Source: an uncultured Acidobacteriota bacterium (GTDB lineage Bacteria > Acidobacteriota > Thermoanaerobaculia > Gp7-AA8 > JAHWKK01). Taken from it: DNA of 64,000 nt. Every line of letters starts with the position of its first letter. The stretch's first letter is position 1. The position numbers and the translations under genes were made by a program. The notes below the pieces were generated by a model, which saw only the letters and a list, made by a program, of their open reading frames with translations, did no database searches and was not told where the DNA came from. This document shows, piece by piece, positions 31,641-60,524 of this stretch. The stretch spans positions 214,964-278,963 of the forward strand of contig CAWHHZ010000001.1 in assembly GCA_963829355.1 (NCBI GenBank). Reading direction: 5' to 3'.

Positions 31641-31846
31641 GATGAGCTGCCCGCGATGGGGTGCTAGGGAGCTCAAGGAACGAGGAGGAGCTCGACGTTC
31701 TCGACCCCTGGTCGAGCTCGGGCTGTCATTCCGAGCAAAGCGAGGAACCTGGGCGGCGAACGGGCAGGCATCTTTTCTCTCCCGAATTCGGTGATGAGGA
31801 CGGACCCGATCATTCCATCGTAGACGACCCCGGCCGATGTCGGGCT

Positions 31847-34518: not shown

Positions 34519-36720
34519 TCAGCAGTCGTCAGATTGTGGACGTTCGTGGACGTGGTGGACGTCTGTGGACGATGTGGACAGAAGCGTGGACTGAGGCGTG
34601 GACAGAGGCGTGGACGGAAAGCTGCTCAGAAACTCTCTTGAAGTTTCTGGTCCACTCTTTCGTCCACGCTTCTGTCCACGCTTCTGTCCACCCAGTCCAC
34701 CCAGTCCACCATGTCCACAGACGTCCACCCCGTCCACAACCTGTCGACTGTCGACTGACGACCGACGACTGCACCCTTGCAGCTCCCGAATGAACGCCCC
34801 GGTGCTGACGGGGCGGCCTAGAAACTCCTCCACGATTGTCTTTGCCTCGGCTTCTCCTCCGCGTGCGAGGATGACCTCTCGGAAGCGGTGGCCGGTGTCG
34901 CGGTTCATGATGTCGTCACCGAATACCGAGAGCAGATCGTTCGCGATTGTTTCCGACCAGAGATAGCCGTAGTAGCCGGCCGCGTAGCCGCCCGTAATGT
35001 GGCCGAACGCGGCCGGAAACATCGTTCCTTCGACATAGCCGAGCGCCGTCTCATCTTCCATCTGCCTCCAGCGGTCGAGCGACGAGGCTGAGCTCGCTCC
35101 GGCGAGCGCCATGTCGTAGCTCGCGTAGAGGTGTTGCCGCGCGTAATGGATCCCCTTGCCGAACCGGCGCGCACCGTCGAGTCTTTTCGCCAGATCCGCG
35201 TCGATGACCGGACAGGTCGGACAGATCTCCGCCATGATCGAGAGGCTCTCGATCCGTCTCCCCCACTCTTCGAACATCTGCGAAGGAGCTTCGACGAAGT
35301 CGCGCTGCACCGCCGTCCCGGAGTGCATGTTGTAGACGGTCGACGAGAGAACGCCGTGGAGGACATGGCCGAACTCGTGGAGAAACGTCTCGAGCTCCTG
35401 GTGGGTCAGGCCTCGGCGATCGAAGTTCGTGACGAGCGCACTGACTGGTTTTCTCCCGGTCCTTCTGCTGACCCCACGCACAGGCCAGGCGGCGGCGTGT
35501 TTGTACTTGCCGTCTCGAGGGTAGAGGTCCATGTAGATCCCGCCGATGAGCTCATCGCTCGTCCCGTCGATGACGTCGAAGTACAGAACCTCGGGACTCC
35601 ACACAGGAACCTCGATCCGCTCGAACCGGACTCCGTAGAGCCGGCTGCTGAGCTCGAGGACCCAGCAGATCGACGGCTCGACGGGAAAATACTTCCGGAG
35701 CTTTTCCTGATCGACGGAAAACTTCTGCTCACGCACCCGCTCCGACCAGTAAGGCACGTCCCAACGATGAATCCGGACCGACTCCAGCGGCTCGTTCGTC
35801 GCGGCAGCTTTTGCCCGTCGCAGCTCCCCGAGATCGTGCTGCTCCCGCTCCCGCACGGCATCGAGAACATCGTCGAGGAACGCGCGAACACGCTCGGGAT
35901 TCTCGACCATTCGCCGGCGTGTCACATAATGCGCGTACGTCGGCAGAGCGTAGAGGGTGGCCATCTCGCTACGCAGCTCCACGATCGTGTCGAGCAGTCG
36001 TAGATTCTCCTCTCCTCCCCGCTGGAGGTAAGCGGTAAAGAGGCGGCGCCTCGCATCTTCGCTCCGCACGTTCATCATGAACGGGTTGTACTCCGGATAG
36101 TCGAACCCGACGAGAATCTCGTCGCCATCCCTATCGAGGGTGTCGATGATGGCCTGCGGAAGTCCCTCGATTTCGCTCTCGGAAAAGCGGACCTTCACCT
36201 CCTGTTCCCGGATGTTCTTTGCGAACTGCTGACTGAGCTCAGTGATCGACTGGCTGATCTCCCGGAAACGGCGACGCTCATCCTCGTCGAGAGCGACACC
36301 GCTGTCTTCGAACGCTTCGAGCAGATCCTTCTTCAGCGTCAGCTCCGGCGGGCTGGACGGCTCGACAGCAGAGACTCTCTCGAAGAGTGCACGATTCTGA
36401 TAGATCTCGGTGTTGAAACTCGAGAGCTCGACCATGTGCTCGTCCGCGGCTTCCCGAACCTGCCGGACAGGATGGACCTCGTTGAGCAGGGACACCGGCC
36501 CGAAGACGTCCTCGACGAGAATCTCGATGTCATCCCACCGGTCGAGAACATCGCTGACTGATGATTTCTCCAGAGGGATCGACTCGATCTCGTTCAATTT
36601 CGATCGCGCCAGATCGATCACGCGACGACATGAGTGCTCGAGCGTGATGGGATCGTGGATCGGGAGGATTGTGCGCTCGGCGGCGCGAGGTTCAGGCGAC
36701 TTCGGACTCAGATCGTGCAT
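34519..36720 (-). CDS. M3-family zinc metallopeptidase (oligopeptidase A / Dcp-like); the last ~80 codons run through the hexamer array and are probably not genuine
   Basis: HEFGHVLHGVL (HExxH). ATG 36720 with GGGGAG RBS. The C-terminal tail GGLGGLGG...STPLSTPQST is a translation of the repeat array. Confidence 0.75.
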   Translation of the reverse strand: MHDLSPKSPEPRAAERTILPIHDPITLEHSCRRVIDLARSKLNEIESIPLEKSSVSDVLDRWDDIEILVEDVFGPVSLLNEVHPVRQVREAADEHMVELSSFNTEIYQNRALFERVSAVEPSSPPELTLKKDLLEAFEDSGVALDEDERRRFREISQSITELSQQFAKNIREQEVKVRFSESEIEGLPQAIIDTLDRDGDEILVGFDYPEYNPFMMNVRSEDARRRLFTAYLQRGGEENLRLLDTIVELRSEMATLYALPTYAHYVTRRRMVENPERVRAFLDDVLDAVREREQHDLGELRRAKAAATNEPLESVRIHRWDVPYWSERVREQKFSVDQEKLRKYFPVEPSICWVLELSSRLYGVRFERIEVPVWSPEVLYFDVIDGTSDELIGGIYMDLYPRDGKYKHAAAWPVRGVSRRTGRKPVSALVTNFDRRGLTHQELETFLHEFGHVLHGVLSSTVYNMHSGTAVQRDFVEAPSQMFEEWGRRIESLSIMAEICPTCPVIDADLAKRLDGARRFGKGIHYARQHLYASYDMALAGASSASSLDRWRQMEDETALGYVEGTMFPAAFGHITGGYAAGYYGYLWSETIANDLLSVFGDDIMNRDTGHRFREVILARGGEAEAKTIVEEFLGRPVSTGAFIRELQGCSRRSSVDSRQVVDGVDVCGHGGLGGLGGQKRGQKRGRKSGPETSREFLSSFPSTPLSTPQSTLLSTSSTDVHHVHERPQSDDC
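34536..34740. repeat. symmetric inverted array of GTGGAC x8 (left) and GTCCAC x9 (right) around a palindromic centre CAGAAACT-ctcttg-AAGTTTCTG
   Basis: GTGGAC starts at 34536, 46, 55, 65, 74, 86, 98, 34610; GTCCAC starts at 34650, 62, 74, 86, 95, 34704, 13, 23, 32. Spacings are 9-10 bp at the outer ends and 12 bp near the centre on both arms. Units such as aTGTCCACAg resemble the high-GC DnaA box TTGTCCACA. Confidence 0.8.
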
Positions 36721-36997
36721 TGGCTCCCCTGTTGCTGCGAAGCAATGATATCTGCAATCGGACGTCCGGCTCACCCGGTCTGGAATCGGCGGAAAGCCGG
36801 GCGCCCCCGACAGCTGTCACAGTCGGGACGAGAGTCATTTCACTCCACTGACGAAGCGAGGCGGCGTTCATTCCCCCGCTCAGGACGACAGTCGCCCGGC
36901 AACGGATCCCTCCGCTACAATTCAACCACAGCAGCGGGGATAATCTCCTTGCCGCACCGAAACACCACAATGCTTGCACGATCTGGAAGGACGACGA

Positions 36998-38982: not shown

Positions 38983-39117
38983 CCGCGGTGAGGCATTCCG
39001 CGCACGCGTAGCCTCGACTGTTTCTGTCTCTCAGGAGCGTTGTTCGTCCCACGGCTCGGAATGACGGCGAGTACGTTCCGAGACGGTGTCCGGGCCTCGG
39101 CGGTCGCCTCCGCCTCC

Positions 39118-39852: not shown

Positions 39853-41113
39853 GAAAACGATCATCTCACTCCTTCTCCTGAGTTTCACCTGGCCGGCCGC
39901 TGCTCTCGACCGTGCGACGATCGATCGTGAGGTCGACGCGCTCTTCAACCAATGCGTGGAGATCCGGAGAGATCTGCACATGCATCCCGAGCTTTCGAAC
40001 CGTGAGGAGCGGACTTCGAACGTCATTGCCGGGCGCCTCGAGGCACTTGGAATCCCGATCGAGCGGGGTGTCGCGAAACATGGAGTGGTTGCGGTCATCG
40101 AGGGTTCTCTTCCCGGTCCCACCGTCGCCGTCCGTGCGGATATCGACGCCTTGCCGATCAACGAGGTGATCGACGTCCCGTACAAGTCACTCAACGAGGG
40201 TGTGAAGCACGCCTGCGGACACGATGTGCACACCACCGTCGGTCTGACAGTGGCCGAGATTCTCTGGAAGCATCGTGACGGTCTTCCAGGAAAAGTGATC
40301 GTTTTCTTCCAACCGGCCGAGGAGGGGCCGCCGCCTGGAGAGAAGGGTGGGGCGCCGCTCATGATCGAGGAAGGCTTCCTCGCACGCTATCAACCCGACG
40401 CGATGTTTGCTCTCCATACGATGCCGACCCTCGAGGTGGGGAATGTCAGTTTTGCGCCGGGTGCGCAGATGGCTTCCTCCGACACGTTTGCCATCGACAT
40501 CACCGGAAAGCAGAGCCACGGAGCGGAGCCGCATCGGGGTATCGATCCGATCTTCATCGGCTCGCAGATCGTGACGGCATTGCAGAGCATCGACAGCCGC
40601 CGGATCGATCCGCTCGAGCCAGTCGTCGTGACAATCGGTACATTTCACGCCGGAACGAGGTTCAACATCGTTCCGGCCAGTGCCAGACTCGAGGGTACGC
40701 TACGCACCCTCTCGCCGGCAGTACGAACCGAATCGAGACGCCTGATCCGGGAGATCAGCGAACTGACGGCAAAGGCACTCGAGGGGTCCGCTGTCGTATC
40801 CTTCCAGGACGATGCGGCCAATCCGGTTCTGATCAATGACGCCGAACTGACCACCTTTGCGGAACGATCACTCCAGAAGACGCTGGGTGAGGGCCAGGTG
40901 CATCGTGACCCGCCGCGAATGGTCGCCGAGGACTTCGCTCACTTCTCCGAGGCGCTGCCGTCGTTCTACTACTTTCTGGGGGTCGGGAATCAGGAGAAGG
41001 GAATCACGGAGAACCTGCACACACCAGGATTCGATGTCGATGAGCGCAGCCTCGCGATTGGCGCGAGAACGATGACGGCTCTCGTCGTCGACTATCTCAC
41101 CTCGCACGAGTGA
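39851..41113 (+). CDS. secreted M20D-family amidohydrolase (N-acyl-amino-acid amidohydrolase / hippuricase-like)
   Basis: Signal peptide MKTIISLLLLSFTWPAAA; ACGHDVHTT...FQPAEEG...match M20D metal ligands. Its ATG overlaps the ATG of the divergent deacetylase (CATG). Confidence 0.85.
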   Translation: MKTIISLLLLSFTWPAAALDRATIDREVDALFNQCVEIRRDLHMHPELSNREERTSNVIAGRLEALGIPIERGVAKHGVVAVIEGSLPGPTVAVRADIDALPINEVIDVPYKSLNEGVKHACGHDVHTTVGLTVAEILWKHRDGLPGKVIVFFQPAEEGPPPGEKGGAPLMIEEGFLARYQPDAMFALHTMPTLEVGNVSFAPGAQMASSDTFAIDITGKQSHGAEPHRGIDPIFIGSQIVTALQSIDSRRIDPLEPVVVTIGTFHAGTRFNIVPASARLEGTLRTLSPAVRTESRRLIREISELTAKALEGSAVVSFQDDAANPVLINDAELTTFAERSLQKTLGEGQVHRDPPRMVAEDFAHFSEALPSFYYFLGVGNQEKGITENLHTPGFDVDERSLAIGARTMTALVVDYLTSHE

Positions 41114-41121
41114 TGACGGCT

Positions 41122-41252
41122 GTCATCCTGAGCTGCCGGATCCCGCGAAGCGGGAGCAGGACGGTCGAAGGATCGCGGACTTTGCCGACTGTCAGGACGG
41201 AAAGAACGCGACAGTCAGGACGTACGCGATCCTTCGCTTCGCTCAGGATGAC
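41122..41252. repeat. GTCATCCTGAG-TIR element, full copy (~130 bp)
   Basis: gtcatcctgagctgccggatcccgcgaagcgg...ggacggtcgaaggatcgcg...gtcaggacg...cgctcaggatgac; about 90% identical to the copy at 45264. Confidence 0.6.
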
Positions 41253-41271
41253 AGTAGGTTCAAAGTGGTAT

Positions 41272-43731
41272 TCAGTCCTGCCCGGCCGGGGCGATGTGCA
41301 GGCCGATCTTCCAGATCAGGGCTTCCAATCGGGGATCGTTTCTGAGCGGGTCGACGGCAGGATCCACCTTCAGAGCAGTGACTCTGCTGGAACGCTCCCG
41401 CACGGCCCGGTCGAGCAACTGGAAAGCCTCGTCGTGTTCTCCGAGAGCCACGTGCACCAGGGCGATGTCGTACGGTGAAACGTAGCGATCCTCGTTCTCC
41501 CTGATGTTCTGGAGAATCTGGCGGGCCCGTGGCTCGTTTCCGGCCGCCGCGTAGGCGTACGCGAGCTCCGTTGACCGTTCCGGATCCCGGCCTGAGAGCC
41601 GCTCCGCCGTGGCGAACTCATCGATCGCCTCCTGAGCCAGCTCTCCTTTGAATGCGTAGGCCCATCCCAGCGATCTGTGGGCCTGCGGAAAGGCCGGATC
41701 GATCTGGATCGCGCTCTTGTAGTGGCTGATCGCCGCATTGTAATTTCTCGAGAGGAGATGAGGAGTCCCCTGTCCCGTTCGAAAGGAGATCGAGAGGGGG
41801 TCGAGAGATTGAGCCAGGTCGCGCTGCCTCATCGCTTCTCCGAAGTTTCCCATCAGCATGTACAAGCCGCCGCACCAGTATCTGGCCCTGGCGTTACTGG
41901 GATCGAGGTCAAACGCCTGCTGGCACTCCCGCACGGCGCTGCTCCAGTCCCAGTCGTAGTTCGACAGCGTGTAGGCAAGAGCAACGTGAGCACCCGATAG
42001 AGATGGGTCCAGCCGCAGCGCCTTGTTGGCGTACTCTTTCGCTGCCGGGAAAGCACCCTCCGGCGGAACCTCCGCATAACTGCCCAGCATGTTGTAGCAA
42101 TCCGCAAGACCAACGTATGCATCCGCGAAAGCGGGATCGACCTCGATTGCTCGGCGGAAGTGCCTGATCGCCTGATCACAGTTCCTGCGGTTGTCATGCA
42201 CCCAGAGGTACTGGCCCTTCAGATACTCGTCGTAGGCGGCTGGTTTGTCGGTTAAGCGCCGTGTCACCCGGTCTGCTTCTTCGCTCGAGAGCCGGAGCCG
42301 CAACTGGTTGGCGATGTCTCGAGAGACACTTTCCTGCACGATGAAGAGATCTGAGACCTTCCTCCTGTAGACATTTCCCCACACCTGCGTTCCGAGGCGA
42401 ACATCGACGACGTCGACCGAAACGCGGAGGTCGCTTCCCTCGTGCGCGATCGATCCCACCACCACGGCGTCGACGTCGAGAGCCTGACCAATCTCGCTCG
42501 GTGTCATTGAACTGCCGCGGTATTTGTCCATCGTGCTCCGGGCGAGAACACGAAGATTGGAGATTTGCGAGAGTCTTTGCGTGATCTCTTCGGTCAGGCC
42601 TACCGAGAGGTAGCTGGTCTGCGAATCCTCATTTTCGGTCTCGAACGGAACGATCGCGATCGAGTTGACCGGTCGCGGGATGCCGGAGAGGTAATGGACG
42701 AACAGAAGAGCCGCGACAAGGAGAATCGACGCTGTGATGATCTCCGGTCTCCGGGAGCGGACGAGTCCCCTCAGGCCGAACACGCTGCGGTTGCTCGGCC
42801 AGGAGGACGAAAAGCTCTGCGCCGCGCTCGCCGTACGCATCCGCGGAAACAGTGACGACCGCCGTTCATTGGCGAGACCGAGCTCGTTTCTGATATCGAG
42901 CAGGCGATCGAGGACCTCGGCGCTGCTCTGGATCCGATCGCCTCTCTCCTTTGCCATGGCGTCCCGAAGCAGAGCAAGCAGGGCCTCCGGTACATCGTCG
43001 CGAGAAGCGGTGATCGGTTCGGGCGGATCAAAGAGGATTGCCTTGACCGTATCTCCCCGGGTCTTGCGATTGAAAGGCGCCTGACCCGTCAGCATTTCGT
43101 GGATGAGCACCCCGAGACTGAATACGTCGGAGGACTGGTCGACGTCGAAGGTCAGGATCTGCTCCGGGGACATGTAGTTGAACGTTCCCATCACCATTCC
43201 GGGATCAGTGGGTGCTCCAGCTCCAGCCTGCCCCCCCTCGTCGCTCCGCAGCAAAAGCTTCGCGAGTCCGAAATCGAGAACCTTGATCAGCCCGTCGTCG
43301 CGCGCCATCACATTGTCCGGCTTGATGTCCCGATGCACCACCCCCGCCTCATGCGCCGCGACCAGGGCGGCTGCGACTCCGATCGCAACCTCGATCGTCT
43401 GTGGTACCGTGAGCGGACCGTCGTGAAGGATCTCGTGAATCGTTCTTCCCGAGACATACTCCTGGGCGATGAAGTGGTACCCGGACGACTCACCGATCTC
43501 ATGGATCGTGACGATGTTCGGGTGATTCAGAGCGGAAGCAGTGCGTGCTTCCAGTTTGAAACGCTGCAGATGATCTTCGTCACGAACAGCATTTTCCGTA
43601 AGGACCTTGAGGGCCACACGACGATCGAGTCTCGTGTCCTCAGCCAGATAAACATCTCCCATTCCGCCAGATCCAATCTTCTTCAGGATCCGGTAGTGAG
43701 AAATCTCCCCCGGTGTGTTCGAAACCGACAT
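41272..43731 (-). CDS. serine/threonine protein kinase with transmembrane segment and C-terminal TPR repeats
   Basis: GSGGMGDVYLA...ALK, HRDIKPDNVM, DFGLAK, APE; TM IITASILLVAALLFVHYL; TPR units at the C-terminus. Intact 819 aa. Confidence 0.85.
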   Translation of the reverse strand: MSVSNTPGEISHYRILKKIGSGGMGDVYLAEDTRLDRRVALKVLTENAVRDEDHLQRFKLEARTASALNHPNIVTIHEIGESSGYHFIAQEYVSGRTIHEILHDGPLTVPQTIEVAIGVAAALVAAHEAGVVHRDIKPDNVMARDDGLIKVLDFGLAKLLLRSDEGGQAGAGAPTDPGMVMGTFNYMSPEQILTFDVDQSSDVFSLGVLIHEMLTGQAPFNRKTRGDTVKAILFDPPEPITASRDDVPEALLALLRDAMAKERGDRIQSSAEVLDRLLDIRNELGLANERRSSLFPRMRTASAAQSFSSSWPSNRSVFGLRGLVRSRRPEIITASILLVAALLFVHYLSGIPRPVNSIAIVPFETENEDSQTSYLSVGLTEEITQRLSQISNLRVLARSTMDKYRGSSMTPSEIGQALDVDAVVVGSIAHEGSDLRVSVDVVDVRLGTQVWGNVYRRKVSDLFIVQESVSRDIANQLRLRLSSEEADRVTRRLTDKPAAYDEYLKGQYLWVHDNRRNCDQAIRHFRRAIEVDPAFADAYVGLADCYNMLGSYAEVPPEGAFPAAKEYANKALRLDPSLSGAHVALAYTLSNYDWDWSSAVRECQQAFDLDPSNARARYWCGGLYMLMGNFGEAMRQRDLAQSLDPLSISFRTGQGTPHLLSRNYNAAISHYKSAIQIDPAFPQAHRSLGWAYAFKGELAQEAIDEFATAERLSGRDPERSTELAYAYAAAGNEPRARQILQNIRENEDRYVSPYDIALVHVALGEHDEAFQLLDRAVRERSSRVTALKVDPAVDPLRNDPRLEALIWKIGLHIAPAGQD

Positions 43732-43822
43732 TTCCTTTTGATGACGCTGGACGGAACCGAGACTGCTCCGCCTTCCTGATCAAGGCACGAGACTTGTTGA
43801 GGCTAAAATAGCGCGAATTGCC

Positions 43823-44632
43823 ATGACAGACAATTTTGTAGCTGTAGCGACTGAAGCCGCCAGAGCCGGAGCCGGAATTCTTCTCGGTTACTGGCAGAAC
43901 CTCGGCCAGGAAGATGCTGACACCAAAGCGAGAAATGACTGGGTCTCGCGGGCTGACCGCGAATCCGAGTCGAAGATCATCGAGGTCATCCGAAAGTCAC
44001 ATCCGGACGACTCCATTCTCGGCGAAGAGAGCGGGGCGTCGACGACTGGAACGAGTGGCCGGACCTGGATCATCGATCCGCTCGACGGCACCTCGAACTA
44101 CCTGAGGCACTTCCCGTTCTGGTCGATCTCCATCGCCCTGAGGCAGGGAGAAGAAATGATCGGGGGACTCGTCTTCGAGCCCCTGCGGGACGAATGGTTC
44201 GTGGCCCGGAAGGGCGGCGGTACACTGCGCAACGGTGAACGCGTTCATGTGGCGGATCAGCCGGGTCTCGACGGAGCCTTCATCGCCACAGGCTTTCCGT
44301 TCAGAGCTCTCAAATACCTCGACGACTACATGGGCGTGTTCCGGGACGTCGTGGCCACTGCCAAAGGCGTACGCCGTGCCGGATCAGCAGCTCTGGACCT
44401 GGCCTACACCTCGGCCGGAATCTTCGACGGATTCTTCGAGCTCCACCTCGCACCGTGGGACATCGCCGCAGGCGGTCTCCTCGTTCGAGAGGCGGGCGGC
44501 ATCGTCAGCGATTTCTCCGGTGGCGAGCAGTTCTGGGAGTCCGGTAACATCGTCGGAGCCTCACCCGGCGTGCATCGAGAGCTGGTCGATATCATCGGCC
44601 GCCACACCTCGGAGGGACGCCTGCAGGTTTGA
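43823..44632 (+). CDS. inositol monophosphatase family protein (SuhB-like)
   Basis: WIIDPLDGTSNY...motifs of the IMPase family. Confidence 0.85.
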   Translation: MTDNFVAVATEAARAGAGILLGYWQNLGQEDADTKARNDWVSRADRESESKIIEVIRKSHPDDSILGEESGASTTGTSGRTWIIDPLDGTSNYLRHFPFWSISIALRQGEEMIGGLVFEPLRDEWFVARKGGGTLRNGERVHVADQPGLDGAFIATGFPFRALKYLDDYMGVFRDVVATAKGVRRAGSAALDLAYTSAGIFDGFFELHLAPWDIAAGGLLVREAGGIVSDFSGGEQFWESGNIVGASPGVHRELVDIIGRHTSEGRLQV

Positions 44633-45242
44633 GCGAACCGGTACTCCCCCGCGAGTTCTATCAGCAGGAGACTGTGGCACTCTCCCGATCTCTTCTCGGA
44701 TGCGTGCTGCACCGCAGAGTTGGCTCGACGACCGTGAGCGGCATCATCGTCGAGACCGAAGCGTACCTCGGCGCGAATGACCCCGCCAGCCATGCCCGAC
44801 GAGGCCTCCGCAGCGCCAGGAATGAGTCGATGTACAAGGCCGGCGGTCACGCCTACGTCTACTTCACGTACGGCATGTATCACTGCATGAATGTCGTGGG
44901 TGGCGAGCCAGACATCGCCGAAGCGGTTCTGTTGAGAGCGATCGAACCGCTCAGTGGAATCGAGATCATGCGACAGAACCGGCCGACGGCGAAGAAAGAT
45001 CGGGATCTGTGCAACGGTCCAGGAAAGTTGTGCATGGCGATGAGCATCGACCGTCGATCTCGACGGCGTGGGTCTCGATTCGAAGCTTCTGTATCTGACG
45101 GGCAGAAGGGAGCCGGTGGACGAGGAGCAGATCGGTATATCGCCCCGGATCGGCATCGATGGGAGTGGTCACGCCGCCGCATGGCCGCTGAGGTTTTTCA
45201 TCAAGAGCAGCCCGTTCCTATCGCGACGCGACCGGGTTTGAT
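44629..45242 (+). CDS. DNA-3-methyladenine glycosylase (Mpg/AAG family), frameshift near 45045
   Basis: GIIVETEAYLG...HAYVYFTYGMYHCMNVV; the C-terminus continues in the +1 frame (VDLDGVGLDSKLLYLTG...IGISPRIGID) to TGA near 45240. Confidence 0.7.
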
Positions 45243-45263
45243 GGACCGGAAGGAAACCCGGCT

Positions 45264-45435
45264 GTCATCCTGAGCCGCCGCAGCGCAGCGGAGGACGGTC
45301 GAAGGATCGCGTACTTTACCGACTGTCAGGACGGAAAGTACGCGACAGTCAGGACGTACCCGATCCTTCGCAGCGCTCAGAGGCTGTGAAAGAATCCAGC
45401 GTACCCTGGATTTTTTCACAGCCTCTCAGGATGAC
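45264..45435. repeat. GTCATCCTGAG-TIR element with an extra internal hairpin insert
   Basis: Both TIRs are intact. The right TIR cTCAggatgac supplies the stop codon of the minus-strand thioesterase. Confidence 0.6.
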
Positions 45436-45821
45436 TTTTGCTTGTCGAAACGAGACGTGGTCAGAACGAAATCACAGGTCGACGTTGCGACGAGCTTCAC
45501 GTCCTCGTCGTACATCTCCACGTATCCGACGCACACCTTTGCGCCCTTCTTCAGAATCCGGGCGTCTGCCACGATCCGGCTTTTCGCCCGTCGAAGAAAG
45601 TGGATGGAGAGATTGGACGTCGCGAATCCCATCTTCCCGTCGAAGTTGGTCGAGAGGGCGCAGGCGACGGCCGTATCAGCAAGCATCGAGAGGACGCCGC
45701 CGTGAATACTGCCGCCGCCGTTATCGAACTGCGTGAGGAAATCGATGGCGAGGCGAGCGTGATCGAGCTCGAGATCAGTGATCTCGAAGTGAAGGTATCG
45801 CTGACTCTGCTCTCTCATCAA
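45426..45821 (-). CDS. PaaI/4HBT-family hotdog-fold thioesterase
   Basis: GGGSIHGGVLSMLADTA motif; 131 aa. Confidence 0.8.
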   Translation of the reverse strand: MMREQSQRYLHFEITDLELDHARLAIDFLTQFDNGGGSIHGGVLSMLADTAVACALSTNFDGKMGFATSNLSIHFLRRAKSRIVADARILKKGAKVCVGYVEMYDEDVKLVATSTCDFVLTTSRFDKQKSS

Positions 45822-45869
45822 ATCGTGCGCGAAGCCGGTCGATCAGATCTGGAGAGATCGATCTGGTGC

Positions 45870-46172
45870 TCACCGGAAGATCGACATCACGCGCTTGACC
45901 ACACCCTGTTCCTTCTCGACGAGCTGTTCGACTTCGCCGGCATCGAACCAGGTTCCGTGACACGACACGCAGCGATCCAGCTCGATGCCCTGAAGCTCGA
46001 AGTGAGAAAGCTCCATGCCGCACTTCGGGCATCTCATGTGGTGCAGTTCCCTGAGACGCTCTTTCTCTTCCGCCGCCATCTTTGTCTCGCGCTCGCGGGC
46101 CCACTGCTTCCGCCGCTCGAGCTCCTCCCTGGCGAAATACTCCTCTTCTGTTTCACTTGGTTTCTTCATCAC
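45870..46172 (-). CDS. zinc-ribbon protein (zf-TFIIB-like)
   Basis: CPKCGMEL...CVSCHGTWFD; charged N-terminal helix. Confidence 0.6.
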   Translation of the reverse strand: MMKKPSETEEEYFAREELERRKQWARERETKMAAEEKERLRELHHMRCPKCGMELSHFELQGIELDRCVSCHGTWFDAGEVEQLVEKEQGVVKRVMSIFR

Positions 46173-46249
46173 GAAGATTTCTCCTTGAGACGTAAAGCGC
46201 GAACGCCCGGCGGTGCGAGAGCGGATGGACGACGCTCCGCCCCACGGCT

Positions 46250-46795
46250 CTAGCGAACCGGAGCGAATACGGGGATCTTTTTCTCCGCGAGAGCAAACGC
46301 GCCGAACAGGAGGCCGGAGAACAGCAGGTCACCCGCGATCGTGTTCCCGAAGAACGGGACCGCAGCGACGTAGCAGGTCACCAAACCCTCGAACGAGATC
46401 GGATACATTCCGGACGTGGCCCAGACGGCAAAGTTCGTCACGATGAAGAAGATCGACGATGCCACGAGGGAGCCACCGATCACCGAGCTTGCGCCCACAC
46501 CCATGCGGCGGATCACGAGTCCCACCGGAACCGTCAGGACGAGAGCCATGTAGATCACGGGTAGAGTCGCATGAAATCCGTTACCCGTCGTCAGTTCGAG
46601 CAGCGAGTCGCTGAGAAGCATCGCACCGAGCGGGAGCAGGAACGCAAGACTCTTTCGTCCGTAACGTGCACCGGCGAAGAGTGCGAGCGCACCGAGCGGT
46701 GTGAAATTCGGCGGGTGTGGCACGAGTCGCAGCAGTGCGGCTCCAAACACGAGGCCGGTAATCAGCCAGAGTCTGGCTTTGGTGTTTTCGGTCAT
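46250..46795 (-). CDS. polytopic membrane protein of unknown function
   Basis: Five to six predicted TM helices; start taken at MTENTKARLWLITGLVF. Confidence 0.5.
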   Translation of the reverse strand: MTENTKARLWLITGLVFGAALLRLVPHPPNFTPLGALALFAGARYGRKSLAFLLPLGAMLLSDSLLELTTGNGFHATLPVIYMALVLTVPVGLVIRRMGVGASSVIGGSLVASSIFFIVTNFAVWATSGMYPISFEGLVTCYVAAVPFFGNTIAGDLLFSGLLFGAFALAEKKIPVFAPVR

Positions 46796-46839
46796 GATGT
46801 CCTCCATCTTGTCTAATCGGCTAACACGCGGGATTTCTT

Positions 46840-48658
46840 TCAACGAATATACCTCACACCGACAATTGTCCGGCGGGAGGGTGCAGGGTATCCGAGAACT
46901 TCTTCATACTCCTCGTCGAGCAGGTTCTCGAATCTTCAGATACGGGGTGAGACCAGAGCGATGACCCATCCTGAGATCCATGTCCACAACGGTGTACGCA
47001 TCATTCGTCACGCGCCCGAAGGGGAAGGCGGACTGGAAATCGGCCCGATCACCGGAGTAAAGAGCGCTGATAAGCCCGGCGAACACTCCCCGCTCCCAGC
47101 CGATCGACAACGCTCCGCTCTGTTCCGGACGGCGCAACAACTCGAGGCCCGTGGCGCGGTCCTCGGTGTCGAGGATCGTCCAGGAACCGTCGATGCGCAC
47201 CATGCCAGCTCTCACGGATCCGCCGAGCTCGAGTCCGCTCGTCACGGCACTGCCGACATTCGCGAGCCGGTTCGAAACCGGATCGAATACGATCAGATCG
47301 TCGATGTCGTTGTGAAACCAGGTGAGGGAGACGCGGCTGGAATCACCCGTCCAGTCGAGCCCGGCTTCCCAGCTCTGCGACGTTTCGGCTCCGAGCTCCG
47401 CATTACCGTAGAACGGATAGTAGAGATCACCGACGGAGGGGGCGCGAAAGGCTTCTCCGTAGGCGACGCGTCCTCGAATGCGGCCCAGGGAGAGCCCGCC
47501 ACTGATTCTCGGGTGAGGTCTCCGCGCCGAACTCTTCGTAGTTGTCGTAGCGCAGTCCTGCCGCAACCTCGAGAGCCGCCGTCCCTAAGGTGGCGGAGAA
47601 CCGGTCCTCGATGAAAACGGCTTTCGACTGACGCTCGTCGCCATCCAGATTCGTTCCGAAGAGAGTTTCATCCGTCACCGAAGAGTCTCGAGCTCTCCTC
47701 CCGCCACGATGGTGCCGGCAGCCGTATCGAATCTTCCCGTCACCGACAACCGCTCGCTCTGCGAATCGGTTTCGCTGGCGATCGGCCCGAATGTACCGAA
47801 CGGATCACTGAAGTCGATCTGGTGCCCGGTCCGCGAGAGCGTCGCGTCCCACACCCCGAAACCGCTGACGATGGTGACCGGGACAGCGATCTGGAGCTCG
47901 CCTCCGTCCTGTCGACGCTCGAGCGAAGGCTGGCCCTGATCGAAGGGAATCCCCAGTTCGTAGTCGTTGAATCTTCCTGACGCGCCGAGAGAGATGTTGT
48001 CGCGGGGGCTCCATCGCAGCGAGCTGACCACAGAGAACTGGCGGAAGTCATCATTATCGAAGAAGCCGTCGTCCTCACGCGCTTCCACGGCGAGATCAGC
48101 GCTCAATCCGGTCCATACGCCCGTCGCCTCCAGCCGGCCGTTGAGAAGTCCACGCTCGCCGACCTGAAGGTCGGATGCGATGCCCGGCCTTCTCGCGCCA
48201 GTGAGGACATTAATGACACCCCCCACTGCGTCGGCCCCATACAGGGAAGAGAACGGTCCTCGCACCACCTCGACCTTCTCGACCCCCACGCTCGAGAACT
48301 GGCCCCAGTCATAGCCTGAAAAATACGGGTTGTTGATTTCGATTCCGTTCCAGAGGACCAGGGTCTGCGCCGAGTTGACGCCACGGGTGAAAAGCGAAGT
48401 CTGCCGTCCCGATGAGCCGGATCTGCTCAGCGACAACCCCGGGACTCCTCGAAGGACCTCCTCCAGGTTGAGAGCGTTCTGCCGTTCGATCTCTTCTCTG
48501 GTGATGATGGTGACGGAAGCCGGCGTGTCCTCCGCGTTCTCGACGATGGCGGAGGCGGTGACGACGACCTCTTCCTCGAAGACCTCACCGGCTGATTGCT
48601 GGCCGAGAATGGGGAGGGTACAGAGGGTGAGTGACAGGGTGAGACGACACAGCCGCAT
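46840..48658 (-). CDS. TonB-dependent outer-membrane receptor (BtuB-like), fragmented by at least 3 frameshifts
   Basis: Signal peptide MRLCRLTLSLTLCTLPILGQQ. TonB box and plug (DTPASVTIITREEIE...FTRGVNSAQTLVLWNGIEINN). C-terminal ...NLLDEEYEEVLGYPA...VRYIR* recovered by frame change. Preceded by a cobalamin riboswitch. Confidence 0.7.
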
Positions 48659-48751
48659 GAGAGCTCCTTTCGCTTCCCACCGAAGCGCGTTGTGGGACCG
48701 GGAAGCTCGCGTCTGCGCGGAACCGCTCCCATGACCCGAAGGAATGTGAAC

Positions 48752-48922
48752 CGTGTGAGGCAGCCGGTCTCCTGACTCCCGAATCATCCTCCTCGAAGCA
48801 CCCTTCCCGGATAACTTCTCCAGTGGGGATCGCCGCTCGCGCGGTTGATCAGCTTCGATTCGTCATCGGTCACAGTGGCGGGGGCCGTGTCGGACTTGCA
48901 CCGACTTCCCGTGCACCACCTC
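48752..48922 (-). promoter_or_regulatory. cobalamin (AdoCbl) riboswitch
   Basis: Minus-strand RNA GGUGCACGGGAAGUCGGUGCAAGUCCGACACGGCCCCCGCCACUGUGA...CCCACUGG...GGGAAGGG...GAGUCAGGAGACCGGCUGCC carries the conserved core and B12 box; ~95 nt upstream of the TBDR ATG. Confidence 0.8.
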
Positions 48923-48994
48923 ACGAAGGTGTAAAAGAACAGATCGGCGATTGTAGCAGAGAGGGAAGGCTGAGGTAACGCCTCCGGCGTTTCT

Positions 48995-50083
48995 TCAGCG
49001 GATGATGTTGATGTCGAGAGAGATATTCAGGCGGATCTTGCGGTGCCTCTGCAGCTCGTCGAGGGAGAGGTTCAGGGGGATCGTCACTTCCTTGACGAGA
49101 CCGTCGAACTGGCGCCGCTCGCTCTGCTGCTCGAGTCGCGGGAGCGAGTTGAGAATCTGATCCGGCAGCGGAATCTCCACGGAACCGAGCGGAACCTCCG
49201 CTTCCTCATGACCGTCGGTCTCGAAGCCCGAGAAAGAAGCATCAAAGCCTGAAGAGGGAGCCGTCGAACCAACATCCGCGGTTGCGTCAAGGAGCTCAGT
49301 TTCGACGATAGGTGCCTCCTGATCGGCCGCATCGTCGATCGTGAAAGTGGAGTCGTCCTCCTGCCTTCCCGGTGACGATGCCTCCGTCACGAGCACATCG
49401 TCCCACACGGACTCTTCCTGCTGCTGCCGGTCGTCGTCCGCAACACGTGCGTCGAGAACTTTGATCTCCTTCTCCAGAGGCTCTTTCCCCTGAAGACCGT
49501 ACTTCTTGATCAGGTGGGACAGAACCAACCGGGTGGCTCCCTTGAGAGTCTCTTCGACTCCGAGCCCCGTCGTCGCGACCGACTCGAATGACGGCACCCC
49601 GAGCTTGTTGACCTCACGCTCGAGCTCCTCGACAGGCAGCGCGTTCGGGAGGTCGCGCTTGTTGTACTGAAGCACGAGCGGAATGTCGCGGATCCTGATC
49701 CCCTGCTTCCGCAGATTGTCCTCGAGGTTCTGGAGACTCTCGGTATTCGCGTCGAGCGCGAAGTCCTGACTGTCGACGACGAACACCACACCGTCAGCGC
49801 CCTTGAGGACGAGCTGTCTCGTCGAGTTGTAGTAGACCTGACCGGGAACGGTATAGAGCTGGAGTTTCGTTCTCATCCCGCGGATCGTGCCGAGGTCGAG
49901 CGGGAGAAAGTCGAAGAAGAGCGTGCGGTCCGTCTTGGTGGCCAGCGAGAGCATCTTGCTCTTGTTGTTTGACGGCAGCGAGTCGTAGATGAACTGCAGG
50001 TTGGTCGTCTTCCCGCAGAGACCCGGGCCGTAGTAAACGACCTTTGCGGTGATCTCTTTGGTCGCGTAGTTGAAGAGGACCAT
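48995..50083 (-). CDS. mglA: MglA-like Ras-family small GTPase with ~165-aa acidic C-terminal extension
   Basis: Close match to the MglA N-terminus (KVVYYGPGLCGKTTNLQFIY...TDRTLFFDFLPL...YTVPGQ...QYNKRDLPNA); total 362 aa. Confidence 0.8.
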   Translation of the reverse strand: MVLFNYATKEITAKVVYYGPGLCGKTTNLQFIYDSLPSNNKSKMLSLATKTDRTLFFDFLPLDLGTIRGMRTKLQLYTVPGQVYYNSTRQLVLKGADGVVFVVDSQDFALDANTESLQNLEDNLRKQGIRIRDIPLVLQYNKRDLPNALPVEELEREVNKLGVPSFESVATTGLGVEETLKGATRLVLSHLIKKYGLQGKEPLEKEIKVLDARVADDDRQQQEESVWDDVLVTEASSPGRQEDDSTFTIDDAADQEAPIVETELLDATADVGSTAPSSGFDASFSGFETDGHEEAEVPLGSVEIPLPDQILNSLPRLEQQSERRQFDGLVKEVTIPLNLSLDELQRHRKIRLNISLDINIIR

Positions 50084-50247
50084 ACGCAGGGCAGATTATC
50101 GGAGGGGTTGACAGGTGTCAACGAAACAGATCTTCCGGCCCGATCGCCCGGCTGCGGCGGGCTGCGGCACGTCCCGACGGATCGGCGTGAGCGTGCCTCA
50201 AGCGCGACGAAATTTCATCGCTTTCATGCTCTGTTGGAGACCGGCAC

Positions 50248-50340
50248 GGAGGAGTGGCAGAGCGGTTGAATGCAGCGGTCTTGAAAACCGCCGTGCCGGT
50301 GACCCCGGCACCGTGGGTTCGAATCCCACCTCCTCCGCCA
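50248..50340 (+). tRNA. tRNA-Ser (anticodon TGA), CCA encoded
   Basis: Acceptor GGAGGAG/CTCCTCC, anticodon loop CTTGAAA, long variable arm, T-loop GGTTCGAAT. Confidence 0.85.
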
Positions 50341-50356
50341 GTTGAGAATGCCTCAT

Positions 50357-50490
50357 GTCATCCTGAGCCGCCGGATCCCGCGAAGCGGAAGGAGGACGGT
50401 CGAAGGATCGCGTGGAGTCATACTCACCCCGAGTTTTCTTCGGAATCCAAGTCGAGTCAGCCCGTACGCGATCCTTCGCTTCGCTGCTAA
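50357..50490. repeat. GTCATCCTGAG-TIR element (degenerate right end) 16 nt after the tRNA
   Basis: gtcatcctgagccgccggatcccgcgaagcgg...ggacggtcgaaggatcgcg is shared with the copies at 41122 and 45264. Confidence 0.5.
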
Positions 50491-50524
50491 TGAACCCTTC
50501 GTAAAGTGCTGAAAACGATAGGTC

Positions 50525-50596
50525 GTCATCCTGACAAGGTTCATTTCTGCTTCACTGGTGACAGCGAAGCGGCGACATTCCCCCGCTCAGGATGAC
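50525..50596. repeat. short GTCATCCTGAG-TIR element
   Basis: gtcatcctgacaagg...gacattcccccgctcaggatgac. Confidence 0.5.
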
Positions 50597-50670
50597 ATCC
50601 TGGGCAATTTCGAGGGTCTCGGCTGGGAATGTTGGTACACTACCTTTGTTTGGAGTCTGGGCACGCTCGC

Positions 50671-50763
50671 GGAGAGATGGGAGAGCGGCTTAATCCAGCG
50701 GTTTGCTAAACCGCCGTACTGATAACCTCAGTACCGAGGGTTCGAATCCCTCTCTCTCCGCCA
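50671..50763 (+). tRNA. tRNA-Ser (anticodon GCT), CCA encoded
   Basis: Acceptor GGAGAGA/TCTCTCC, anticodon loop TTGCTAA, long variable arm, T-loop GGTTCGAAT. Confidence 0.85.
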
Positions 50764-50825
50764 CTTTGTTCCCTGGCCGGCGCGGCATGACTCCCCCGCG
50801 CGGAACCGATCGGTGGCGGGGGCTT

Positions 50826-51593
50826 CTACGGCTGTCCCATCTTCTTGACCGCGTCGTTCAGACCTGCGATCAGATCGACCGGGAGCGGGAACACGATGGT
50901 CGTGTTCTTCTCCATTCCGATCTCAGTGAGTGTCTGAAGATAGCGAAGCTGGATCGTCACCGGCTCCTTCGACATCATCTTTGCTGCCTCCACGAGCTGC
51001 TTCGCGGCCTGGAACTCGCCCTCGGCATGGATGATCTTCGATCGCTTTTCACGTTCCGCTTCGGCCTGCCTGGCGATCGCGCGTGTCATCTGCTCGGGGA
51101 TGTCGACCTGCTTAACCTCGACGTTGACGACTTTCACACCCCAGGGAGCCGTGTGCTTGTCGAGGATCTCCTGAATGCGCACATTCAGCTTCTCACGCTC
51201 GGAAAGGAGATCGTCGAGCTCCACCTCTCCGAGCACGGAACGCAACGTTGTCTGTGCAAACTGGAACGTCTGGAAGATGTAGTCCTCGACCTCCACCACC
51301 GCCTTGGTCGGATCGACGACGCGCAGAAAAATCACGGCATTGACCTTCACGGTGACGTTGTCCCGGGTGATCGTGTCCTGAGGCGGGACCTCGAGCGCGA
51401 TCTGCCTGAGCGAGATGCGAACCATGCGGTCGATCGGCGCAAACACAAAGATGACGCCCGGCCCCTTGTCGTGGTCGAGCAATCGTCCGAGGCGGAAGAT
51501 CACGCCACGCTCGTATTCGGCGAGAATCTTGATCGAGCTCAACAGGTAGAAGCCGAGGATGACGACGACGATGATCAGGCCGAATGAGCCCAT
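50826..51593 (-). CDS. SPFH/band-7 (stomatin-like) membrane protein
   Basis: N-terminal TM followed by the SPFH domain ([13 protein letters not shown]...). Confidence 0.85.
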
Positions 51594-58824: not shown

Positions 58825-60345
58825 ATGGCTGTGCAGGGTGAGGAACTCGCCTCGAAAATAGAGGAAAAGATCAAACAGGCGATCGACTCGGTCGTCGAGG
58901 ATATCCGGGTCTCGATCGATGACGTTCGCGACGTCGTGAACCAGCAGTTCGACGCGGTGCTCCAGAGCGTACTGGCCGACGCGAAGGCGATGTCGGTGAG
59001 AGCCGAGCTCGACGAAATGCTGGCCGGACAGGTCGCACCGCCCCCGGCGGCTCCTCCGGAAACTCAGGCCGAACCGGGCCTCGGGAGCCGGGAGCTGAAA
59101 AAGGCAATTCAGCAGATCGAGCGGGGCGGGACCCAGGTCGACGTGCTCAACGCTCTGCTCGAGCAGTTGCTCGAGTTCGGATCGCGCGCTGCCCTGCTGA
59201 TTCTCAAGAGCGACACCTTCAGCGGCTGGAAGGGGAAAGGTTTCTCCTCTTTCGGCGGCCAGGACGAGTTCGTCAAGAGACTCAGCGCCGGACCCGGCGA
59301 GATCCGAGAGCTCGACCGGTTGCGACTCGAAGAGAAGGTCGTGAGCTGGGATGGCGGATCGTTCGCGCAGAAGCTCGGAATCACGCCCCCAGCCAGCGCC
59401 CTCGTCGTTCCGATGGTGATCAAGGACAAGATCTCCGCCGCGGTATACGTCGACCGCATGCCGGACTCCGAGGGCAAGCTCGATCAGGCCGCAGTCGAGC
59501 TGCTCGTGTTCGCGACGGGCCTCCTCATCGACACGCTCGCAATCCGCAAGAAGGTTCCATCTCCCACCCTCAGCCGGGAAACGGATGCGGAGCCGTTCGA
59601 GTCCGAAGAGCCGGAAATGCTCGCGCACGGCCAGCTGCAGGCTCCTGAACCTGCAACGCCCGCGTCACGAGAGTTGACGATGGAGCGGGAGCAACCAGCA
59701 CCACCCCGAACTGAACATGACAAGCCAGTTCCGGAGGTCGAGGAACCATCGGCGCCTCGACCGGCGTCGACCGGTATTGAGATGCCTTCGAGGTATCCCG
59801 AGCACGTAGAGCCCCCACGTCCGAAGGAGGAGCCTTCGCCGGTCGAGCCAATTCCGACTGAGCTCCGATCAGTCGAACCGCCGCCAGCCGAGACTCCGTC
59901 CGCGCCGCCGGCTGCCGCCACATCGGCTCCCGCGACTCCCGTGGAGCCCGCACCTCCAGAAGCGCCGCAGCCGTCCGCTCCGCCTCCGACACAGGTGAAA
60001 CCGAAAACGGGAGGCTCTGGCGAGAGCACCCAGTATGTCCCGCCCCCCGGCGTGAAGGGCGGTTTTGCCGCGCGCGCGGAGATGGGCGAGGACGCGAAAA
60101 AGCACGACGACGCCCGCCGATTCGCGCGGCTGCTGGTCTCCGAGATCAAGCTCTACAACGAGGGTAAAGTCGATCAGGGCCGCAAGAACGGCGATCTCTA
60201 CGAAAGACTCAAAGAAGACATCGACCGTAGCCGCCAGATGTATGAGGACCGGGTACCGAGCGAAGTCAGGGATGTCTCGAACTACTTCTACGACGAGCTC
60301 GTGAGGATCCTCGCCGACGGAAACACCGACGCTCTCGGTCTCTGA
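58825..60345 (+). CDS. hypothetical protein with N-terminal alpha/beta domain, long Pro/Glu-rich linker and conserved C-terminal helical domain
   Basis: GAGGGAG RBS; linker PEPATPAS...PPPAETPSAPPAAATSAP; C-terminus RRFARLLVSEIKLYNEGKV...YERLKEDIDRSRQMYEDRV. Confidence 0.6.
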   Translation: MAVQGEELASKIEEKIKQAIDSVVEDIRVSIDDVRDVVNQQFDAVLQSVLADAKAMSVRAELDEMLAGQVAPPPAAPPETQAEPGLGSRELKKAIQQIERGGTQVDVLNALLEQLLEFGSRAALLILKSDTFSGWKGKGFSSFGGQDEFVKRLSAGPGEIRELDRLRLEEKVVSWDGGSFAQKLGITPPASALVVPMVIKDKISAAVYVDRMPDSEGKLDQAAVELLVFATGLLIDTLAIRKKVPSPTLSRETDAEPFESEEPEMLAHGQLQAPEPATPASRELTMEREQPAPPRTEHDKPVPEVEEPSAPRPASTGIEMPSRYPEHVEPPRPKEEPSPVEPIPTELRSVEPPPAETPSAPPAAATSAPATPVEPAPPEAPQPSAPPPTQVKPKTGGSGESTQYVPPPGVKGGFAARAEMGEDAKKHDDARRFARLLVSEIKLYNEGKVDQGRKNGDLYERLKEDIDRSRQMYEDRVPSEVRDVSNYFYDELVRILADGNTDALGL

Positions 60346-60361
60346 GGCGAAGAAGCCAAAC

Positions 60362-60480
60362 GTCATCCTGAGCGCCAGCGAAGGATCGCGTAAGGGGTGA
60401 CTCGAGGTGAATTGGCGGTGGAGACTCAGGGGACTCCACGAGGCCGAAGGCCGCCGGGTGAAGTCTTCGCTCAGGATGAC
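60362..60480. repeat. GTCATCCTGAG-TIR element
   Basis: gtcatcctgagcgccagcgaaggatcgcgt...cttcgctcaggatgac; the first 30 nt are identical to the 16151 copy. Confidence 0.6.
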
Positions 60481-60524
60481 CCCGGTCCACTGGAGACGGC
60501 GGTATCTCCCGCGAAACAGTGACG

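Follow-up and report, generated by a model that had tools for sequence, protein, structure and literature searches.

The element at positions 41122-41252 of a 64,000-nucleotide stretch of DNA (hereafter, the window) from an uncultured Acidobacteriota bacterium of the class Thermoanaerobaculia (GenBank assembly GCA_963829355.1, contig CAWHHZ010000001.1) belongs to a repeat family whose basic unit is an oriented hairpin of about 28 nt. The elements of this family are probably inverted-pair composites of hairpins of the Ssn-related motif (SRM) class, which overlaps those REPs (repetitive extragenic palindromes) that carry a CGTC tag, and by analogy with Neisseria they would be the target of a cognate Ssn, a small nuclease of the GIY-YIG type. 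Units of the same kind flank a gene for such a nuclease at many metagenomic loci, and the protein encoded there is 50% identical to the product of an open reading frame (ORF) of Neisseria gonorrhoeae, so the family is best placed with SRM.

Hairpin units and their composites in the window

The motif GTCATCCTGAG, at no more than one mismatch, was found 16 times on both strands of the window, against an expectation of 2.19 from 100 dinucleotide-preserving shuffles, none of which attained 16. Thirteen of these matches were exact, and every exact one lay at coordinates given in an earlier note on this DNA. The over-represented, intergenic repeat family which that note had described is real at this scale; its check for motif excess was run on the 64-kb window only, where the excess is present. 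The one-mismatch matches at 8078 and 20963 fall inside ORFs, have no other feature of the family and are probably due to chance. In total, the family comprises eight intergenic elements (E1 to E8 in Table 1; the flagged element is E4) and three fragments or variants, together covering about 1.5% of the window, with the GTCATTCCGA or GTCGTCCTGAG variants located at 2031, 31725, 36880 and 39056, the last of them newly found. A self-comparison of the window aligned the copies to one another over long stretches at 91-98% identity.

The unit can be written as (T/C)GTC-AT-NNN-GA-[GC GAA GC or a longer inner hairpin]-GA-N'N'N'-AT-C. The canonical copy forms the right end of the flagged element and reads TGTCATCCTGAGCGAAGCGAAGGATCGCG on the minus strand. 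In it, an unpaired (T/C)GTC tag precedes the stem ATCCT/AGGAT; both arms of the stem carry a G-A step, the tip is GC-GAA-GC, and a C comes directly after the stem. Counted over its whole length, the stem is made of AT, three further pairs, G.A/A.G, and two GC pairs, which gives nine positions with two of them non-Watson-Crick. The "11-bp terminal inverted repeat (TIR)" and the "internal core" of the earlier note are the 5' and 3' halves, respectively, of this one unit. The core (CGAAGGATCGCG) was indeed recovered as a shared segment in the self-alignments; the TIR could not be upheld as a transposase-type end, being half of a self-contained hairpin that also occurs solo (16149-16177) and in many phyla.

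The (T/C)GTC tag is present in all window units, and a C stands directly 3' of the palindrome (...AGGAT-C) in every intact one. The loop has two forms, the 3-nt GAA and inserts of 5-41 nt, and the 3' tail, CTC across phyla, is CGCG in the window. Loop insertions in the window units are always located between GAGC and CGA: the left units at 41122, 45264, and 50357 and the inverted unit at 14759 carry 24-32 extra bases there, this long insert being itself a small hairpin with a GCGAAGC-type tip, and the units at 16149 and 60362 carry GCCAG in the same position.

The long elements are formed by two inverted units with their tags outward (head-to-head) and a structured spacer between them. Outward tags were found in all five inverted pairs, four of which are clear unit dimers; of the one-ended copies, two or three represent truncated dimers. 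The intact dimers are built from units with the CCT stem, and the TCC stem type is represented in the window by solo or decayed copies only (2031, 31725, and 39056). Mosaic copies also occur, since the element at 45264 combines the loop of the unit at 14759 (98% identity over 49 nt) with the spacer of the element at 41122 (93% over 89 nt). The spacers were absent from all other fetched loci, and the unit of about 27 nt alone is shared with other genomes. When the flanks of the five complete copies were compared, all differed, and no target-site duplication was found at any of them.

Conservation and covariation of the unit across phyla

An exact 25-mer of the unit is present in 24 IMG/VR contigs, and a scan with GTCATNNNGAGCGAAGCGANNNATC over a set of one genome per GTDB species returned at least 120 loci in more than 15 phyla. 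The matches listed came from Acidobacteriota, Nitrospirota, Planctomycetota, Bacteroidota, Chloroflexota, Gemmatimonadota, Verrucomicrobiota, Patescibacteria, Bacillota, Alphaproteobacteria, and others. Among these listed matches, the free stem triplets were Watson-Crick complementary in 131 of 143 copies, with nine different triplets represented; when each locus was counted once, complementarity was observed in 115 of 127 cases, compared with a mean of 27.6 and a maximum of 44 after shuffling. Four of the 12 non-complementary stems had T:G on the GTCAT strand, and the reverse kind did not occur. The inner GC pairs covary too, GAGC..GCGA being replaced by GAAC..GTGA (GAACGAAGTGA).

The unpaired flanks are conserved as well. 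Of 138 copies across phyla, 110 have T and 20 have C (130 together) just 5' of GTC, and 115 have T after ATC. Note that the C after the stem was fixed by the cross-phylum search pattern and is not independent evidence there. Only 24% of the listed matches lay inside long ORFs, against 77% for random positions, and single units near an upstream gene end were in the sense orientation in 40 cases and in the antisense orientation in 12, as judged from an ORF-based proxy without a gene caller. The unit hairpin is under selection, with conserved unpaired flanks, and the conservation of both hairpin shape and flanks across phyla points to a conserved partner.

A different arrangement was observed in a Bacteroidaceae metagenome-assembled genome (MAG; locus L033, 3563-4217), where seven units of the GTT/AAC type follow each other in one orientation with an exact 105-bp period and conserved flanks; these copies are a tandem array, not dispersed ones.

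A GIY-YIG gene flanked by the units

The all-against-all comparison of the ORFs neighbouring at least 120 motif loci gave a sole lead, a two-member cluster of GIY-YIG proteins of about 100 aa, encoded directly beside units in one Gracilibacteria MAG and one alphaproteobacterial MAG. No other recurrent neighbour family was found at the motif loci, the largest clusters being two-component signalling domains, short-chain dehydrogenases, and DinB. With these two GIY-YIG proteins as queries, 80 metagenomic loci were fetched, and units were located within 400 nt of the GIY-YIG gene in 75 of them. In the usual layout, a forward unit lies some tens of bases upstream of the gene (48 of the 80 loci) and a reverse unit lies at or over its 3' end (59 of 80); units on both sides, pointing outward, were found in 35. 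Near the gene, units occurred at 3.1 per kb; in the more distant parts of the same loci the figure fell to 0.30 per kb, and shuffles gave 0.05 per kb. These loci hold 300 units altogether, and in 251 of them the GA...GA step encloses an inner hairpin of 7-41 nt, so the long-loop units of the window are within the normal range of the family.

Two features of these loci deserve description in their own right. Many Ssn ORFs end in a repeat-encoded tail (...DSSLRSE or ...DPSLRS; for example, L038 5700-6700 from a Gracilibacteria MAG and many of the loci L148-L227), since the downstream unit reaches into the gene's 3' end. Also common near Ssn ORFs are partial tandem duplications in which the 5' half-unit, TGTCATCCTGAGC with about 8 nt, is repeated two to three times ahead of a full unit.

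The link to Neisseria was obtained by direct comparison. BLASTP placed one metagenomic member, with CCT-type units on its flanks, at 50% identity to an N. gonorrhoeae ORF (E = 6e-28), and in tblastn the GIY-YIG protein matched one place per chromosome on two N. gonorrhoeae chromosomes (49% identity, E = 1e-13). This ORF is surrounded by NTS repeats (CGTCATTCCCGCG...GCGGGAATC), and as the only chromosomal homologue, with flanking repeats, it is the putative ssnA orthologue. The two entries concerned, NZ_CP119142.1 and NZ_CP119140.1 (2.17 Mb), are stored in PLSDB as plasmids and are evidently chromosomes. A search of PDB and NCBIfam with the GIY-YIG protein returned no named family, the only match being a distant one to UPF0213 (E = 2e-4).

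The Ssn proteins in the protein database come mostly from contigs of 1-2 kb, presumably because the flanking repeats break assemblies. With Ssn genes on such short contigs, the absence of ssn from a MAG would be weak evidence.

Relation to SRM hairpins and CGTC-tagged REP sequences

SsnA of N. meningitidis is a single-domain GIY-YIG protein of 94 aa (cd10448) whose target, CGTCATTCCCGCGMAVGCGGGAATCYRG (NTS, a subset of dRS3), is bound as single-stranded DNA only and in one orientation, and is cut a few bases upstream of the repeat (Chenal et al., Nat Commun 2025, PMC11893778). Cutting depends on the three bases that precede the palindrome and binding on the C that follows it; deletion or extension of the loop is tolerated, and RNA is not bound. 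The ssnA gene has NTS repeats on its flanks, SRM likewise flank thousands of homologues in different phyla, and in Neisseria the Ssn system lowers transformation by repeat-carrying DNA (PMC11893778).

The family described here resembles SRM in being an oriented inverted-repeat hairpin of about 20-50 nt with an unpaired HGTC on the 5' side of a palindrome beginning in AT, a C directly on its 3' side, and a variable, extendable loop. The tolerance of SsnA for an extended loop fits the long-loop units of the window. The likeness extends to intergenic copies in tens to hundreds and to a gene for a single-domain GIY-YIG protein of about 100 aa flanked on both sides by outward-tagged units, as seen at the metagenomic loci, with a product 50% identical to that of the Neisseria locus. 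At the same time, the structure differs: here, five Watson-Crick pairs are followed by a tandem G.A step and then by a separate inner hairpin, whereas SRM has a continuous GC-rich stem of 8 bp, and the 3' tail is TC or GCG here but YRG in SRM. In addition, the units here are built into composite dimers of 120-170 bp, and the host is an Acidobacteriota MAG.

The second related set is formed by the CGTC-tagged REPs, which include Neisseria dRS3 and Rickettsia RPE-4/RPE-6 (Di Nocera, De Gregorio and Rocco, BMC Genomics 2013, PMC3733652). They have a CGTC/TGTC (or CCTC) tag, a stem of 8-9 bp starting with A-T, and structured spacers; they mostly form head-to-head dimers, often heterodimers whose loops are unequal in length, near the stops of convergent or unidirectional genes, and they were reported from five phyla, Acidobacteria not among them. 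The window units share the tag, the nine-position stem with an initial complementary A-T, the head-to-head dimers, and the structured spacers, and the window elements share the placement at convergent or unidirectional 3' ends with stop-codon overlap. However, loops of 4-5 nt and mostly CCA tails were published for these REPs, as opposed to GAA or a long insert and CTC or CGCG here, and two stem positions are G.A mismatches here. No strings matching the hairpin were found in the supplements of that paper, and literature searches by sequence (GTCATCCTGAGCG and similar) and by repeat-encoded peptides (RFARND, SFRAKRGI) returned unrelated papers only. The hairpin was set apart from both published sets by their text descriptions, and it may be shown in their consensus figures, perhaps as one of the four families of CGTC-tagged REPs.

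Insertion at a site empty in a relative

A syntenic locus of a relative (L229; ThiL 74% and DUF971 85% identical) allowed a comparison of filled and empty sites. It has the gene order amino-acid kinase, DUF971, thiL, and TPR gene, and the kinase and DUF971 stops are 3 nt apart, which represents the empty form of the site where the window holds the 121-bp E2. No duplication distinguishes the filled site from the empty one. In the window, the old DUF971 stop can still be recognised, although it is no longer in frame; the ORF therefore terminates inside the repeat. The comparison for presence and absence proposed in the earlier note was, hence, positive for E2: the genome has gained further copies of its composites, with insertion at a site which a relative has empty.

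The M20 peptidase/kinase site of the flagged element itself was less informative. In relatives with an M20 peptidase 78-86% identical, the flanks of the M20 and kinase orthologues have no unit, but the gene order differs, so this locus offers only weak evidence of an empty site; the amino-acid-kinase/DUF971 site is the clean comparison.

Downstream of thiL, the relative carries TCC-type units at another distance than in the window and beside an assembly gap: the thiL-TPR intergenic region (6994-7045) contains a duplicated 5' half-unit and a full TCC-type unit, followed directly by an N run. The position of this scaffold gap suggests that the repeats break assemblies. The intact CCT-type dimers and the solo or decayed TCC-type copies of the window suggest a turnover of stem types, as in REPIN populations.

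Proposed mechanism and alternative explanations

The following sequence of events may be proposed, its nuclease steps being modelled on Neisseria SsnA. When DNA becomes single-stranded, during replication, during repair, or on entry into the cell, each unit would fold, and the folded unit would be bound in one orientation by a cognate Ssn of about 100 aa, which would nick the DNA a few bases upstream of the GTC tag. This Ssn would be encoded elsewhere in the genome, its gene probably being flanked by two units itself. Because a hydrolytic nuclease cannot transpose DNA alone, we infer that the elements spread through nick-induced repair or copying, by which composites with lineage-specific structured spacers would have reached many intergenic sites, mainly between gene 3' ends.

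Several observations weigh against the assignment of the elements to the SRM class with a cognate Ssn. The published SRM pattern, HGTCWYN(0-2)YYVSBRHN(0-5)WNVSBRGN(0-2)RNCYNB, which was built from 29 genomes (PMC11893778), gave no match in the window and none among the 300 units at the 80 ssn loci, compared with eight at the Neisseria locus, so the hairpin is a different sequence type from the tested ones; this pattern is an operational search tool, not the definition of the class. The folding of a single unit by nearest-neighbour parameters was unremarkable (DNA z -1.2 to +0.2) and indistinguishable from that of shuffles, so the case for the unit hairpin rests on covariation. The cognate nuclease of this organism is a predicted one, and no ssn gene was found in the 64-kb window (best tblastn E = 0.5). 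The query by which the 80 loci were ranked has seven repeat-encoded residues at its end, which could give a slight advantage to genes with a 3' unit, though not to upstream units. Finally, a hydrolytic GIY-YIG nuclease alone cannot account for copy-and-paste spread.

A more far-reaching form of this proposal, which we put forward only tentatively and with more doubt than conviction, is that the G.A-step hairpin is a distinct and very widespread class of Ssn targets (more than 15 phyla, including Patescibacteria and Bacillota) missed by the SRM pattern, and that a REPIN-like composite of it is actively copied in an Ssn-dependent manner in this Thermoanaerobaculia lineage.

Among the other explanations, the elements could be primarily RNA elements, that is, 3'-untranslated hairpins which terminate transcription or shield mRNA from 3' exonucleases, with a secondary link to the nuclease. 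Their placement at gene 3' ends, often between convergent genes, would agree with this, as would the excess of sense over antisense units across phyla and the T:G pairs, found on the GTCAT strand only, of four non-complementary stems. The full elements also fold far below their shuffles (z -3.5 to -12 as RNA and -2.9 to -7.6 as DNA), and the long hairpin which the earlier note expected from the paired ends is well founded in this respect. The likely terminator that it proposed gained no support: no element in 40500-51500 or 14000-17000 was called terminator-like, none has a U tract, and a short T run follows one copy only (45264-45435). Nor do the elements match any Rfam family, the gathering-level hits in the window being two tRNAs and a cobalamin riboswitch, and nothing credible appeared over 41050-41320 even at E ≤ 10. 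Moreover, SsnA does not bind RNA (PMC11893778), a requirement for the cleavable strand to be the lagging-strand template would produce the orientation bias just as well, and the conserved unpaired GTC tag and the clustering around ssn would be left unexplained. An RNA role as the primary function is, overall, improbable, though the transcribed hairpins may still play some part at mRNA 3' ends.

The architecture of the composites is that of REPINs, inverted doublets of REPs reportedly described, together with the single-copy flanked HUH gene of the RAYTs, by Bertels and Rainey in 2011 and by Nunvar et al. in 2010. Here, too, two inverted hairpins and a spacer fold into one long hairpin, no target duplications are made, the copies are intergenic and of lineage-specific types, and the units surround a single-copy nuclease gene; even the tip GCGAAGC is found in enterobacterial REPs. 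Mobilisation of such doublets by a RAYT, a single-copy IS200-like tyrosine (HUH) transposase, is nevertheless very improbable for this family. The tag is (T/C)GTC, not GTAG, the gene flanked at 80 loci encodes a hydrolytic GIY-YIG enzyme and not an HUH transposase with a covalent intermediate, and the neighbours of at least 120 motif loci gave no other recurrent family. Di Nocera et al. likewise found no tyrosine transposase flanked by CGTC repeats (PMC3733652).

The earlier note had called the family MITE/REP-like, and the second part of this name is right. A classical MITE, a miniature transposable element with inverted repeats, would be a deletion derivative of an insertion sequence (IS), with its 11-bp TIRs recognised in trans by a DDE transposase. 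Like the bacterial MITEs (Correia elements, ERIC, and Nezha), the elements are small (55-170 bp), non-coding, and foldable, with inverted ends and many intergenic copies, and one filled site could be set against an empty one. MITEs, however, have target-site duplications and IS-derived ends, and neither was seen here: duplications are lacking at every complete copy, and the window, where families were scanned for the ORFs adjoining elements only, showed no transposase ORF and no IS bearing such ends. In addition, the supposed TIR occurs alone as a hairpin half in more than 15 phyla, the stem of the unit covaries, which is unexpected of a protein-binding TIR, and the gene flanked by units elsewhere encodes a GIY-YIG nuclease. 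A MITE origin is hardly credible on these grounds.

A chance or compositional artefact of a GC-rich genome, which would cover the two isolated one-mismatch matches in ORFs and nothing else, can be dismissed, being already refuted by the shuffle counts (2.2 matches expected) and by the multi-copy alignments.

Genomic placement of the elements and neighbouring genes

The coordinates of all copies are collected in Table 1. As the earlier note had stated, the elements are intergenic and located at gene 3' ends, and their flanking genes are convergent at five sites (E2, E3, E4, E5, and E8). The four repeat-borne stop codons that it had listed were found at 2032-2034, 14750-14752, 16156-16158, and 45426-45428. 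It had to be corrected with respect to the tRNA-Ser genes (50248-50340 and 50671-50763), since the two copies said to bracket the pair (50357-50490 and 50525-50596) actually lie between them.

Table 1 Elements, fragments, and variants of the repeat family in the window
Feature	Position	Strand	Structure	Flanks and context
E1	1979-2069	+	One-ended; two units in tandem: decayed long-loop CCT-type 1979-2029 and TCC-type 2031-2069, the latter GTCATTCC-GA...GA-GGAATC	Stop of NirDL/AsnC-tandem gene, 2032-2034 (-), is the TCA of GTCA
E2	14639-14759 (121 bp)		Inverted pair; head-to-head dimer in opposite orientation to E4; long-loop unit 14715-14759 (-), loop-deleted unit 14639-14658 (+)	Few bases between stops of convergent amino-acid-kinase and DUF971 genes
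E3	16149-16205	+	One-ended; single unit 16149-16177, CGTCATCCTGAGC + GCCAG + CGAAGGATCGCG; E2/E8-related spacer remnant	Last two codons and TGA stop of thiL (16156-16158) inside the unit
E4 (flagged element)	41121-41253 (inverted-pair ends 41122-41252)	both	Inverted pair; head-to-head dimer	M20 peptidase stop 41111-41113 (+); Ser/Thr kinase-TPR stop 41272-41274 (-)
E4 left unit	41121-41177	+	TGTCATCCTGAGC + 32-nt inner hairpin insert + CGAAGGATCGCG	
E4 right unit	41225-41253	-	Canonical, TGTCATCCTGAGCGAAGCGAAGGATCGCG	Separated from left unit by 47-nt structured spacer
E5	45263-45436 (inverted-pair ends 45264-45435)		Inverted pair; head-to-head dimer; left unit 45263-45311 (+) with E2-like loop; spacer 93% identical to E4 spacer	
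E5 right unit		-	Split by 49-bp insertion 45381-45429	Thioesterase stop 45426-45428 (-) in outer end
E6	50356-50490 (also 50357-50490)		One-ended; left long-loop unit 50356-50412 (+); E2-like spacer; right unit truncated after ...CGCTTCGCT	Begins 17 nt past tRNA-Ser(TGA)
E7	50524-50597 (inverted-pair ends 50525-50596, 72 bp)		Inverted pair; only the 10-12-nt ends common to the family, GTCATCCTGA...TCAGGATGAC; interior different	74 nt ahead of tRNA-Ser(GCT); decayed relative at 36830-36891
E8	60361-60481 (inverted-pair ends 60362-60480)		Inverted pair; head-to-head dimer; left unit 60361-60390 (+) with GCCAG loop as in E3; right end GTCATCCTGAGCGAAG only	506-aa ORF stop 60343-60345 (+); GFO/IDH/MocA oxidoreductase stop 60525-60527 (-)
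Solo TCC-type unit	31724-31752	+	TGTCATTCCGAGCAAAGCGAGGAACC; one stem mismatch	
Decayed E7-subfamily copy	36830-36891	-	GTCGTCCTGAGCGGGGGAATG...	
TCC-type 5' half-unit only	39030-39066	-	CGTCATTCCGAGCC...	Between two convergent ORFs; not in the earlier note

The 49-bp insertion that splits the right unit of E5 is a near-perfect palindrome of 44 bp (GGCTGTGAAAGAATCCAG.../...CTGGATTTTTTCACAGCC) with CTCAG duplicated on both sides, and it has the look of a very small element nested in E5 and flanked by a target duplication of 5 bp; no further copies of this palindrome were found in the window.

Upstream of the same element, the ORF 44629-45273 ends in the repeat only through a frameshift, the real stop of the methylpurine-DNA glycosylase (44629-45241) being at 45239-45241, before the element. 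Residues 1-142 of this enzyme match the protein of a relative with 85% identity, and the last 57 are in the +1 frame, which reflects either an assembly error or a pseudogene.

Two further features were noted in the window. The last approximately 85 codons of the M3 peptidase ORF, past the end of the Pfam domain, form an imperfect palindrome of about 200 bp (34535-34737), in which about nine GTGGAC hexamers spaced by 9-11 nt are followed by a loop of about 35 nt and about nine GTCCAC hexamers, with arms of up to 51 nt that are 82-88% complementary. The cobalamin riboswitch (Rfam RF00174, 92.9 bits) is located at 48745-48935 (-), upstream of the minus-strand ORF 47675-48787.

Significance

The Ssn/repeat architecture has been known since 2025; the present analysis extends the Ssn/SRM system to Acidobacteriota, with both the phylum and the hairpin design lying outside the published pattern, and the hairpin is a candidate for a new Ssn specificity. 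For annotation, a repeat that overlaps four stop codons gains a name and a testable partner, and it is a repeat which probably fragments assemblies. The published pattern misses this hairpin type, perhaps the commonest of all, so SRM abundance and Ssn specificities are probably undercounted in surveys. Each pair of an Ssn and its hairpin is a potential tool for site-specific cutting of single-stranded DNA, and a loop-tolerant hairpin of 28 nt is of practical value in this respect. The findings also raise the questions of how the hairpins spread and what their role is in non-competent soil bacteria. If Ssn-dependent copying is true, a hydrolytic GIY-YIG nuclease would drive a bacterial non-autonomous element without transposase chemistry.

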